DNA of 59,574 nucleotides, taken from positions 1 through 59,574 of the forward strand of contig JBGTGT010000099.1 in the NCBI GenBank assembly GCA_041746575.1, given 5' to 3'. The DNA is from Microcystaceae cyanobacterium (GTDB taxonomy: Bacteria > Cyanobacteriota > Cyanobacteriia > Cyanobacteriales > Microcystaceae). A program made the position numbers and the translations under genes. Positions 8,949 through 13,450 of this stretch are shown piece after piece. The notes beneath the pieces were generated by a model. That model was not told the DNA's origin. It saw only the letters and a list, made by a program, of their open reading frames with translations, and did no database searches. Numbering within the stretch: position 1 is the first letter of the stretch; each line of letters begins with the position of its first letter.

Positions 8949-9770
8949 GTGAGAAACCTTGTATTACTAATCACCCTTGTCACCACGCAGGTACTAGGGG
9001 ATATTTGGCTGAGTAAAGGCATGAAAGTTTTTGGGGCAATTACCCGATTTACTTTTCAAGAAATTAATCAATTATTAAGTTATTTAATAACCAGTCCTTG
9101 GATTGGCTTAGGGGTGGTTACCCTCACCTTTTCAATGATGATTTATTGGGTAGCCATTGCCGATATGGATGTCAGTTATGTCTTACCGATTCACGCCGCC
9201 AGTTATGTCCTCAATGGGTTGATGGCATGGCTAATTTTAAGAGAACATATCTCTTTAACTCGCTGGTTAGCCACCTTCATTATTGCTCTTGGCGTTTTTA
9301 TGGTGGGTTGGAGTCAATATCACACTCAGCATCGTCCTCCCCCCCCTCAATCGCCTAACGCTTCGATGTTGATCACTTTGCCTTTTTTGGGGATTATTCC
9401 TAAAATTTGGCTAGGGGCATTCATGTTAGCTTTAACGGATGCGATAGGAGATATCTTAACAGCTAAGGGAATTAGAATGATCGGGTCTTTTCCAGAATTT
9501 ACGTTTGAGGAGATGTTAAAGTGGTTGAAAAAAGTGATTGCTAATCCCTTTATTGTTGCTGGAATCAGTTTTCAAGCTCTTTCTTTTTTAATTTTTCTTT
9601 CCCTCTTAAGTTGGGCTGATATTAGCTTCGTTCGTCCAGCAACGGCTATCGGTTATGTGATCAGTTTATTAGGCGCAAAATTGATTTTACACGAACGGAT
9701 TACTCAAGGAAGATTGATTGGCATTACCGTTATTGGTTTAGGCATCGCTGTGATTTCTTTAACTCAATAA
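8949..9770 (+). CDS. EamA/DMT family transporter (two repeated halves)
   Basis: Two homologous hydrophobic halves (D[VI]S[YF]V.P ... L.E.I...R) joined by a Pro-rich linker. Confidence 0.8.
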   Translation: MRNLVLLITLVTTQVLGDIWLSKGMKVFGAITRFTFQEINQLLSYLITSPWIGLGVVTLTFSMMIYWVAIADMDVSYVLPIHAASYVLNGLMAWLILREHISLTRWLATFIIALGVFMVGWSQYHTQHRPPPPQSPNASMLITLPFLGIIPKIWLGAFMLALTDAIGDILTAKGIRMIGSFPEFTFEEMLKWLKKVIANPFIVAGISFQALSFLIFLSLLSWADISFVRPATAIGYVISLLGAKLILHERITQGRLIGITVIGLGIAVISLTQ

Positions 9771-9897
9771 GGTATGATGTCGGTTGACTTACCTAAGTAA
9801 GCTTCTGCGTTAAGATGGTAGGGAGTTGCCTTAAGATATTGACCCTTAAGCAATTTTATGGTCTTATATTAAGAATTGTTATCTGGAGTTAAGCGAA

Positions 9898-10353
9898 ATG
9901 GAACTATTAACCCTTGCTGGTATCGGGACAATTATTTTAACCGGTGTGTTAACTCGTATGGGAGAAATGGCATTAGATAAAAGTGTTGATCAATTAAACA
10001 AGTTAGTTAAACGTAAGTCTCCTAAGACATTTCAACAATTGGAAGCAGCAGCAAAAACACCAGAATTGTTACTTAAAGCAGTGGAAATGATGGCAATCTT
10101 AATAGAAGAAGATGAGGAGATTAAACAAGTTGCGAAACAAGTTGCAGAGGAGAATAAAGATAATCCTGATGTGATGAATCAATTAGCGATAATTAAACAA
10201 ACAGGTTTAAGAAATTTTGAAGCGGAGGAATTAGAAGGAGAAATTACACAAAAAGTGAAAGGGAATGTTAAAACAAATATAGAACAAATTGGGATAGAGG
10301 AGACAAAGATTCAGGGAAAAGCAACCCTTAAAATCAATCAAGATATTGAATAA
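9898..10353 (+). CDS. Small helical protein with C-terminal pseudo-repeats; candidate Bell-like amyloid-activated effector
   Basis: Hydrophobic N-terminal helix, about 95 aa helical domain, then two related repeats (aa 99-120, 128-150) matching the N-terminus of the downstream NLR; GGAG RBS. Confidence 0.65.
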   Translation: MELLTLAGIGTIILTGVLTRMGEMALDKSVDQLNKLVKRKSPKTFQQLEAAAKTPELLLKAVEMMAILIEEDEEIKQVAKQVAEENKDNPDVMNQLAIIKQTGLRNFEAEELEGEITQKVKGNVKTNIEQIGIEETKIQGKATLKINQDIE

Positions 10354-10368
10354 AGGAGAGTAATAAGA

Positions 10369-12270
10369 ATGGGATCTAAACAAACGGGAATTAAAGATTC
10401 AACCTTTGGTGATCATGCTAATATTGAGATTCATCAAATCACTCTTAGTAATTTACCTGTAAAAAGTACCAATATTCCTAGTGATGTTAAGCAGGGTTCA
10501 TCGTATTTTGTGGGAAGAATAAGAGATTTAGAGAATTTACATCGAGAGTTACAAAATCAAGAAAAGTCGAATATTGTTTCAATTTATGCGGTGCAAGGAA
10601 TGGGAGGGATAGGTAAAACGGAGTTAGCGATTCAATATGCGTTATCTCCTAAATACATTCAAAGTTATACGGCTTGTTATTGGTTTTCTTTGAGGGAAGG
10701 GGATTTAGCAACTTTAGTTTTAACAAAAACCTCTGCTTATTTAGCAATGCCAGAGATAATGAGGAAACAGGATACAATTGATCAACAAGTCAGATGGTGT
10801 TGGCAAAATTGGCATCCGCAAACAGATAATATTTTAATTGTAATTGATGATGTCAATCATTTAGAGGATATTCCCGAAAAATGGTTACCGATTGATTCTC
10901 GATTTAAGGTGATTATAACCACAAGACAACAAAATTTGAGTCCTCGTTTTACTGGGTTACCGTTAGGAGTGTTATCAGAAACGGAAGCGATATGCTTGTT
11001 AAAGAAGATTGTCGATAAAAAAGGAACAAACCGCATTGAGAATGAAGGGGAAACCGCAAAGAAAATTTGTCAGCGTTTGGGTTATTTACCGTTGGGGCTG
11101 GAGTTAGCGGCGACTTACATTGTCGATGATGAAATGTTAAGTTTAGAGGAATATTTACAACAATTAAATATACAAGATGAGTCGTTATCGGATGAGATGG
11201 TAAGGGGAATCACCGCAGAGAGAGGAGTGATTGCGGCGTTTGAATTAAGTTGGCAAAAATTAACGGGATTTTCAACTTATTTAGCGATGCTATTGAGTCG
11301 GTTTACCTCAGCAGATATTCCGTGGTTAGAATTAATTGAACCCACTATTAATCAGTTAGGATGGGATATAAAAGCGATAAAAGTAGCACGAAAACAATTA
11401 GCAAATTTAAACCTAATTGAGATTATTGAACAAAAAAATATAAGAATTCATACCCTCTTAAGAGAATATTATCGCTATCACAGCAAAAAAGCAGGAAGTC
11501 ATTTTATTCAGCAAGTACAAAAGTCTATTGCAATGAGTTGTCTTGCGGTGGCGAAAACGATTCCTCAAACGCCTGTTATTAAGGATATTGAAAGGGTGAC
11601 ACCATCAATTCCCCATTTGCAATATCTCAGTCAAACAATGTTAGATGATATTCCTAATCCAGATGATAATTTAATATGGGCATTTGTAGGAGTCGCATGG
11701 TTTTACGCAGGACAAGGACAGTATGACATTGCAGAACCTTTTTATCAACGTTGTCTCGATGAAATTACTTCTCGTTTAGGAGAAAATCATCCCTCTACTG
11801 CTACCAGTCTCAATAATTTAGCAGGATTATACGGTTCTCAAGGACGTTACAGTGAAGCAGAACCCTTGTATTTGCGTGCGCTTTCTATCATTGAACAGCA
11901 GTTAGGAGAAAATCATCCCGATACTGCTACCAGTCTCAATAATTTAGCAGGATTCTATGAAACGCAAGGTAAATATCAAAAAGCAGAAACCCTTGCACAA
12001 CGAGCATTAACGATTTATCTCAATACCGTCGGAGAACAGCATCCTCATACCTTGAATTCATTACTAATGGTAAAATTATTACAAGTGATGAAGTTATTGT
12101 CATGTAATAAGCAAACTCTAATTGAGATTTTACAAGCTTTAGCAGAGCAAGCGAACGTTCCCAAACTTAATCCAGAATCAGCGTTAACTTTGCTAGATGT
12201 AATGTTATCTAATCCCGAATTATTGCAGAATCTACGAGAAGCAATACAAACAGATACAGAAGAATTGTAA
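10369..12270 (+). CDS. NB-ARC (STAND) NTPase with C-terminal TPR repeats (bacterial NLR)
   Basis: YFVGR, Walker A GMGGIGKT, Walker B LIVIDDV, IITTR, GYLPLGL, IHTLL (MHD-like); HPxTATSLNNLA TPRs; AAGGAG RBS. Confidence 0.92.
   Translation: MGSKQTGIKDSTFGDHANIEIHQITLSNLPVKSTNIPSDVKQGSSYFVGRIRDLENLHRELQNQEKSNIVSIYAVQGMGGIGKTELAIQYALSPKYIQSYTACYWFSLREGDLATLVLTKTSAYLAMPEIMRKQDTIDQQVRWCWQNWHPQTDNILIVIDDVNHLEDIPEKWLPIDSRFKVIITTRQQNLSPRFTGLPLGVLSETEAICLLKKIVDKKGTNRIENEGETAKKICQRLGYLPLGLELAATYIVDDEMLSLEEYLQQLNIQDESLSDEMVRGITAERGVIAAFELSWQKLTGFSTYLAMLLSRFTSADIPWLELIEPTINQLGWDIKAIKVARKQLANLNLIEIIEQKNIRIHTLLREYYRYHSKKAGSHFIQQVQKSIAMSCLAVAKTIPQTPVIKDIERVTPSIPHLQYLSQTMLDDIPNPDDNLIWAFVGVAWFYAGQGQYDIAEPFYQRCLDEITSRLGENHPSTATSLNNLAGLYGSQGRYSEAEPLYLRALSIIEQQLGENHPDTATSLNNLAGFYETQGKYQKAETLAQRALTIYLNTVGEQHPHTLNSLLMVKLLQVMKLLSCNKQTLIEILQALAEQANVPKLNPESALTLLDVMLSNPELLQNLREAIQTDTEEL
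11776..11954 (+). repeat. Near-identical TPR-coding repeats with 126-bp period
   Basis: ttaggagaaaatcatccc..tactgctaccagtctcaataatttagcaggatt at 11776 and 11902. Confidence 0.85.
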
Positions 12271-12472
12271 AGCAATGCGTTAAGTTGTTAATCCTCTGCA
12301 TTAAGGCAGACTTGATACCAAATCCGACTTTTAAAACCCAGTTACGGATGGTTTCTCCCTACTGTCCTAAAAGTGGAGGTTGAGAAGATTATTGCGTTCC
12401 GTTGCACTTTCGTTTAACCCCGTTCAAACTTATGAGATCATAGGGAATGATTGACTGTTAACCTCTCTATAA

Positions 12473-13450
<978 letters not shown>

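Follow-up and report, generated by a model that had tools for sequence, protein, structure and literature searches.

A cyanobacterial effector-NLR gene pair with a two-plus-one repeat layout and a coupling motif related to BASS4

We analyzed a 59.6-kb stretch of DNA from a Microcystaceae cyanobacterium (contig JBGTGT010000099.1, positions 1 to 59,574; the whole stretch is called the window below) and focused on two neighboring genes that encode a small helical effector and a receptor of the NOD-like (NLR) type. A preliminary description of this DNA had proposed that the two proteins communicate through amyloid: the 151-residue effector ends in a pair of pseudo-repeats (R1, R2), and the 633-residue NLR starts with a single copy, R0. 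Both open reading frames (ORFs) lie on the same strand, 15 bp apart, as described there, and the three repeats read exactly as quoted (Table 1). The layout of two repeats on the effector plus one on the receptor survives comparative tests of conservation, of switching between motif classes and of membership of the effector in the Bell domain family. We consider it highly probable, by analogy with studied systems, that the pair is a Bell-BASS/NLR amyloid-signaling module that would work by R0 templating of R1 and R2.

Table 1. Features of the effector-NLR gene pair in window coordinates
Feature	Position	Strand	Basis
Effector gene, 151 residues: Bell-type helical domain and double repeat	9898..10353	+	ORF; AlphaFold2
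Hydrophobic N-terminal helix of the effector (MELLT..., with position 2 acidic), a candidate for membrane insertion	9898..9963	+	
Bell domain, residues 1-96: helix 1 and four more long helices	9898..10185	+	model, domain HMM
R1 core Q101-Q118, 18 residues	10198..10251	+	conservation among family proteins
R2 core Q130-Q148, 19 residues	10285..10341	+	conservation among family proteins
AGGAG ribosome-binding site right behind the effector TAA	10354..10358	+	sequence
NLR-type receptor gene, 633 residues: R0 - NB-ARC - TPR	10369..12270	+	Pfam
R0 core Q5-Q23, 19 residues	10381..10437	+	conservation among R0 copies
NB-ARC, residues 54-269; Walker A 77-84, Walker B 155-161	10528..11175	+	Pfam, motif reading
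Three 42-residue TPR_10-type repeats, putative sensor	11659..12042	+	Pfam

In the receptor, Pfam recognizes the NB-ARC domain (E 9e-14) and three TPR_10/TPR_12 stretches, and the ATPase motifs are intact (Walker A, Walker B, sensor, GxP and an MHD-like motif). Ahead of NB-ARC there is just R0 and a linker, which bears out the earlier statement that this NLR lacks a folded N-terminal effector domain. The TPR array is short compared with most relatives; about 75 leucine-rich residues with no Pfam match follow it (window 12043-12267). The NLR start codon lies in the frame of the effector, five codons past its stop; readthrough between the two genes was considered and set aside given the TAA, the ribosome-binding site, the ATG and the NLR's own R0.

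Within the window pair, R0 and R2 align without gaps at 6 identical residues of 23, and the DNA word aaacaaacNgg, whose sharing had been pointed out before, occurs in the window only at 10195 and 10378. In shuffle tests, the best ungapped 19-mer reaches p 0.005 and R2 against the NLR N-terminus p 0.010; the whole effector tail against the NLR N-terminus, by local alignment, gives p 0.046, and R1 against R2 gives p 0.056. Firm support for the kinship of the repeats is comparative, coming from sequences across genomes and not from the window pair alone.

Across the family, the motif shows alternating polar and hydrophobic positions with fixed Gln and Gly and no Pro, and the same residues recur. 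Q1, G3, L4, A9 and Q18 of R1 are kept in 92-99% of 86 family proteins; Q1, G3, G11, A13 and Q19 of R2 in 94-100% of 83; and Q1, G3, I4, G11, A13 and Q19 of R0 in 96-100% of 67 copies. The R1 core is 18 residues long and the R2 core 19, with a linker of 8-13. Both repeats are present in 86 of 138 collected proteins under 260 residues. On the receptor side, a profile of the NLR N-terminus, which favors NLRs because it spans linker residues, found 71 proteins; a 19-residue R0 starts 67 of them (median start at residue 7) and 69 have a P-loop.

Among 401 genomes of the class, the effector has matches in 21, and among 61 near relatives in 13, mostly through the N-terminal domain. When 301 genomes of the order were searched with a profile of the tail alone, 15 gave matches, 7 of them strong (E below 1e-12). 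Searched against 1.84 billion representative sequences, the tail profile has 26 matches, of which 24 are Bell-like (small proteins or fragments) and 2 are long repetitive proteins; other effector domains bearing the window motif were not found among these 26, of which the 2 long proteins were left uninspected. The full-length effector profile has 588 matches, and the best 120 of the 588 were examined. Motif carriers come from sources named Microcystis, Pseudanabaena, Crocosphaera, Woronichinia and Snowella. No locus was found for the window effector protein in a named genome collection, or for the protein P0038 in viral contigs.

Among 21 distinct effector loci with a window-type tail, 12 have R0 downstream, at the start of an NLR in 10, at the edge of the locus in one and on a broken remnant in one; the R0 of locus L073 was missed by the pattern scan and taken from direct reading. 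We compared tails with heads in 36 hand-picked pairs from six motif classes, all with both ends readable. Cognate partners score a mean of 47.8 compared with 29.5 +/- 1.9 for permuted partners (p 5e-5, a value that overstates significance because the loci are related). Against the NLR heads of their own family, window-family tails score 36.9; BASS4 heads give 25.8 and BASS3-/BASS7-type heads 20.7. The same tails reach 35.6 against BASS5-class NLRs because four of those six NLRs bear an extra R0. Covariation of tail and head, a check that the preliminary description had proposed, is thus present between motif classes.

The motif also moves relative to the domain that carries it. In a tree of 54 N-terminal domains, it sits on three well-supported Bell clades (10 effector-NLR pairs in all), mixed with carriers of BASS3, 4 and 5, and at least 4 motif changes are forced; the tree rests on 99 columns and many of its forks are open. 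The tail and head therefore behave as a module, and the R1R2 tail with the R0 head would be an exchangeable connector, moved between Bell lineages. We also observed two-headed NLRs, in which a window-type R0 is followed by a BASS5-type motif (L073:4971, L079:5432, L080:4742, L082:6196, L087:4907, L089:2781; P0210 and P0211). The effector beside a two-headed NLR bears the window motif, BASS5 or a BASS4 hybrid.

The effector itself has no family above the cut-off in Pfam, NCBIfam or PADLOC. AlphaFold2 models it as helices over residues 6-96 and strands over residues 98-150, with a mean predicted local distance difference test (pLDDT) score of 72; the Bell-domain model (residues 1-96) has pLDDT 70 and a predicted TM-score of 0.61, with the helix at 3-22 at pLDDT 51-64. 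The hydrophobic N-terminal helix noted earlier is borne out by a Kyte-Doolittle mean of 1.73 over residues 1-19. The family consensus here is MEPxTL, and the window protein, with E2, agrees with the acidic residue at position 2-3 and the 'MEPIS' region described for Bell proteins. A hidden Markov model (HMM) of the N-terminal domain alone recovers effectors whose tails match published Bell-side entries of BASS3/4/5/7, some identically or nearly so (L013 = C07_s041; L057 = C06_s072/s077; L036 = C03_s023), as well as P0108-P0140, whose tails are of BASS9 type. It is through these recovered proteins, by transitive homology, that the helical domain is placed among the Bell domains.

Searches by fold, with the full model and with residues 1-96, gave no clear match (best E 1.5 with Foldseek; best Z 4.9 and 5.6 with VIA-align), and a sequence search of the PDB gave no relative of the effector below E 0.02. 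Scattered matches to CARD at Z 3.5-4.8 were read as a common helical arrangement and rejected. The ESM Atlas returned cyanobacterial clusters without names (0.93-0.96); a further cluster (0.92) has HetE-N on 18% of its members, which is a lead only.

We predicted the complex of two effector tails with R0, a structural check suggested by the preliminary description. The complex scores 0.50 and the best control 0.05, with contact agreement of at least 95% across runs and partner pLDDT of at least 66. This is weak support: in calibration, 116 of 157 solved pairs and 2 of 215 mismatched pairs came up to the mark, and at 0.60 or under these were just 18 of the 157 solved pairs and both mismatches. 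The score of this model may also stem from its resemblance to the HET-s solenoid, whose structure is solved.

By analogy with HET-S/NWD2 and Bab/Agp, signaling would begin with the binding to the TPRs of a ligand that probably comes from phage. Oligomerization of the NB-ARC domains would follow, and the R0 peptides, now clustered, would nucleate a beta-solenoid amyloid that would template R1 and R2 of the effector, each repeat forming one rung. As the tail refolds, the hydrophobic first helix would come loose from the Bell bundle and damage the membrane, and the infected cell would die. The proposed killing step is taken from Bab/Agp, which kills upon T5 infection (10.1101/2024.11.07.622273). 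BASS1 and BASS3 form prions and cross-seed (10.1101/2020.01.06.895854), and fibrils with transmissible aggregates are described for every BASS motif tested in the accessible literature, namely BASS1, 3 and 11.

Several observations weigh against amyloid signaling by this pair. The repeat similarity within the single pair is modest (p 0.005-0.056), and the window R1 is strongly acidic (EAEELEGE); the motifs tested so far, rich in Q/N/G, are more typical. Of the 21 effector loci, 9 have no visible R0, several of them ending at short contigs, and at L058, L062 and L095 there is, in between or in its stead, a second Bell gene whose motif is a different one. Effector and NLR are directly adjacent in only 2 of 10 complete pairs (the window and L040), small genes intervening elsewhere. 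Covariation is not seen within the family, where cognate pairs score 34.5 and permuted pairs 36.7 (p 0.89, n = 10). The accessible literature gave no wet-lab data on the window motif or on BASS4.

The low single-pair scores would fit a similarity that is left over from local duplication, or that arose by chance, between genes that no longer cooperate, as would the many homologous loci that are broken or split (L009, L037/L062, L061, L092, L093). Both window genes are intact, however, the fixed positions are kept throughout the R0, R1 and R2 copies counted above, and the motif class has been swapped jointly on both genes across Bell lineages; we judge a relic very improbable. The repeats could also act as a soluble, stoichiometric beta-solenoid docking surface, by beta-helix completion, without self-propagating amyloid. 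The monomer model already orders residues 98-150 into strands at pLDDT ~80, many charged residues could restrict fibril growth, and the complex prediction cannot separate a closed complex from a segment of a fibril. Against docking stand the fibrils and transmissible aggregates of BASS1, 3 and 11 and the two-plus-one layout, which is that of the HET-s solenoid (PMC7889193), so we regard docking as unlikely. The window pair is real and most likely functional; its architecture, the conservation of its repeats and the class-level pairing can be read from the sequences themselves, and templating by R0 is the reading that we prefer.

The earlier suggestion that the motif may be new stands in part. 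The BASS1-10 sequences are given in supplement 1 of PMC8086366, with 127 for BASS4, which we equated with its cluster C06, a mapping inferred from family sizes. Of 18 diagnostic words of the window family, 17 are absent from the searchable part of these sets, which for BASS4 covers part of the 127 sequences; diverged members could escape such a search by words. In the accessible sets, KQTG has one relevant match, the NLR OYQ63523.1, filed under BASS5 only, and its first motif, unassigned there, is a window-type R0. R0, R1 and R2 lack the G-hydrophobic-Q-hydrophobic-G core (BASS3/RHIM/PP) and have no Pfam RHIM match. HeLo/HET-s Pfam models do not match the window proteins, and one of 22 relatives matches HeLo at E 0.014, below the cut-off.

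What did not stand is complete novelty. The tail alignment of the window family matches that of BASS4-type loci (hhalign E 3e-4, probability 39%), and on a 15-column BASS4-type profile ten window-family tails average 17.1, compared with 4-8 for tails of BASS3/5/7 and 2.5 for those of BASS9; 59 family proteins score 12.9 and shuffled ones 5.1, and the window tail has p 0.02. These profiles are surrogates built from BASS4-type loci and not the published HMMs. Together with the two-plus-one layout, a repeat spacing of 26-30 residues and a register shared over 15 positions, such scores would fit a plain BASS4 motif: a diverged member, recoverable by the published profiles and of the same seeding specificity. 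Hybrid tails, with a 19-residue R1 lacking the BASS4 turn and a 20-residue BASS4 R2 (L064, L066, L076, L077, L079, L081, L083), are intermediate between the two motifs and located on the same Bell clade, and downstream of one hybrid effector, at L079, lies an NLR carrying a window-type 19-residue R0. The NLR of L077 has an 18-residue R1-like head at its start.

In contrast, the BASS4 form (in the accessible cyanobacterial C06 entries and at L042-L057) is a 20-residue Gln-to-Gln repeat ending in G-[DN]-[ILV]-x-Q, and the window motif, at 18 or 19 residues and without the G-[DN] turn, falls outside this definition; L055 and L056, which are BASS4-type, have 19-residue repeats, yet keep the turn. 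An HMM from BASS4-type loci gives the window family 1-18.6 bits; BASS4-type tails, which were used in building the 15-column profile, reach 27-33 on it. Eight pure BASS4 effectors prefer BASS4 heads over window-family heads (39.8 vs 23.4), and the missing diagnostic words point the same way within the searchable sets. We therefore find the plain BASS4 reading somewhat doubtful. On sequence grounds, the window motif is a BASS4-related variant or sister family, not wholly new, and the BASS4 question is one of naming and specificity, not of mechanism. Tentatively, it might count as a twelfth BASS family, an orthogonal amyloid code that arose from BASS4 by loss of one beta-turn. Its setting would be a wiring of swappable connectors, in which Bell domains carry BASS3, 4, 5, 7, 9 or the window motif, two-headed NLRs could fire two effectors, and near relatives of the window effector would make the receptor out of the effector gene itself, by programmed, hairpin-stimulated UGA readthrough, in place of a second gene bearing R0.

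The last of these elements comes from related loci. In 14 of 64 Bell ORFs (L013, L014, L016, L017, L018, L023, L024, L026, L029, L030, L032, L033, L035, L036), an NB-ARC frame continues in frame past the stop; its first 20 codons hold no Met, and R0 is missing. Those relatives that are nearest to the window Bell domain belong to these 14. The P-loop follows 49-52 codons after the effector stop, which is TGA in 14 of 14 such loci compared with 10 of 50 other Bell ORFs. The stop stands in the context TGA-CTA/CTG-nAG-yCG, with a 6-bp hairpin 11 nt downstream. In this hairpin, 89% of cells are paired, compared with 20-42% in slid controls, and 4 of 6 pairs show two-sided changes; the structure was drawn from these very loci, which are related to one another. 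GTG or TTG occurs within the first 20 codons in three of the 14. The UGA and the conserved hairpin suggest programmed readthrough, which would yield an effector and a Bell-motif-NLR fusion. Selenocysteine insertion was rejected, as no SelB was found over the cut-off in 5 of 5 genomes tested. Readthrough in such effector-NLR systems was not found described in our literature search. If the hairpin drives readthrough, one gene would give effector and receptor at a fixed ratio, and this by-product may matter more than the window pair.

Its housekeeping genes mark the window as cyanobacterial. The genome (4.2 Mb, 99.78% complete) holds no second relative that we could find of the effector, or of the NLR when searched by its NB-ARC region at E <= 1e-3. 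The pair has a GC content of 0.34-0.36, compared with 0.40 for the genome, and is flanked (window 8949-13450) by genes that we take to encode an EamA-like transporter and a protochlorophyllide reductase-like protein. Different neighbors surround the homologous effector in two congeneric genomes, so the position of the cassette is variable. An element of ~30 bp lies 3' of the NLR (window 12310-12344); it has many dispersed matches in the same two congeneric genomes and just one other site in its own. Small genes that recur between effector and NLR at other loci resemble toxin-antitoxin modules (putative nucleotidyltransferase with DUF86-like partner, HicAB-like, RelE-like and DUF29-like genes); they are seen at L002, L004, L005, L008, L022, L028, L073, L076-L083, L087 and L089, and the window pair is without them. 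Promoter and terminator scans of the locus were at chance level. Sequencing runs that contain the window stretch are listed as hot-spring metagenomes, with no RNA runs among those listed.

The Bell-BASS/NLR type of system is already published and has been tested in another member, so the gain from the window pair is modest: one more coupling motif. BASS4, the hybrids and the window variant form a natural series one beta-turn apart that could be used to work out specificity rules of amyloid seeding. For cyanobacterial Bell-NLR pairs, including those of bloom-forming Microcystis and of Pseudanabaena with the window motif, the accessible literature gave no shown function.

The closest known system is BASS4, which likewise places a small Bell protein collinear with an NB-ARC/TPR gene in cyanobacteria, with the motif C-terminal on the effector and N-terminal on the NLR, often double on the Bell side and single on the NLR (PMC8086366). 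Both share the register Q..hydrophobic-x-hydrophobic-x-G-x-A/L-x-I over 15 positions. The window motif differs in the length of its repeats (18 residues in R1 and 19 in R2 and R0, against 20), in having Gly as its third residue, in lacking a G-[DN] turn ahead of the final Gln and in its distinct, near-invariant R0. Bab/Agp, a BASS11 system for abortive infection in E. coli, resembles the window pair in its small helical effector, whose first helix is hydrophobic and of 'MEPIS' type, and in an effector C-terminal motif common to the N-terminus of the adjacent receptor (10.1101/2024.11.07.622273). Its receptor, in contrast, is TPR-GreA/B-C-PIN instead of NB-ARC/TPR, and its effector domain has ~80 residues compared with ~96 in the window protein, which carries two repeats. 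In fungi, HET-S/NWD2 (the HRAM motif; PMC7889193) has R1 and R2 on the effector and R0 on the adjacent NLR, with one repeat predicted per rung. It is built from HeLo, NACHT/WD and 21-residue repeats, whereas the window pair is built from Bell, NB-ARC/TPR and repeats of 18-19 residues. Judged by its encoded architecture, the window pair is a bacterial counterpart of HET-S/NWD2.

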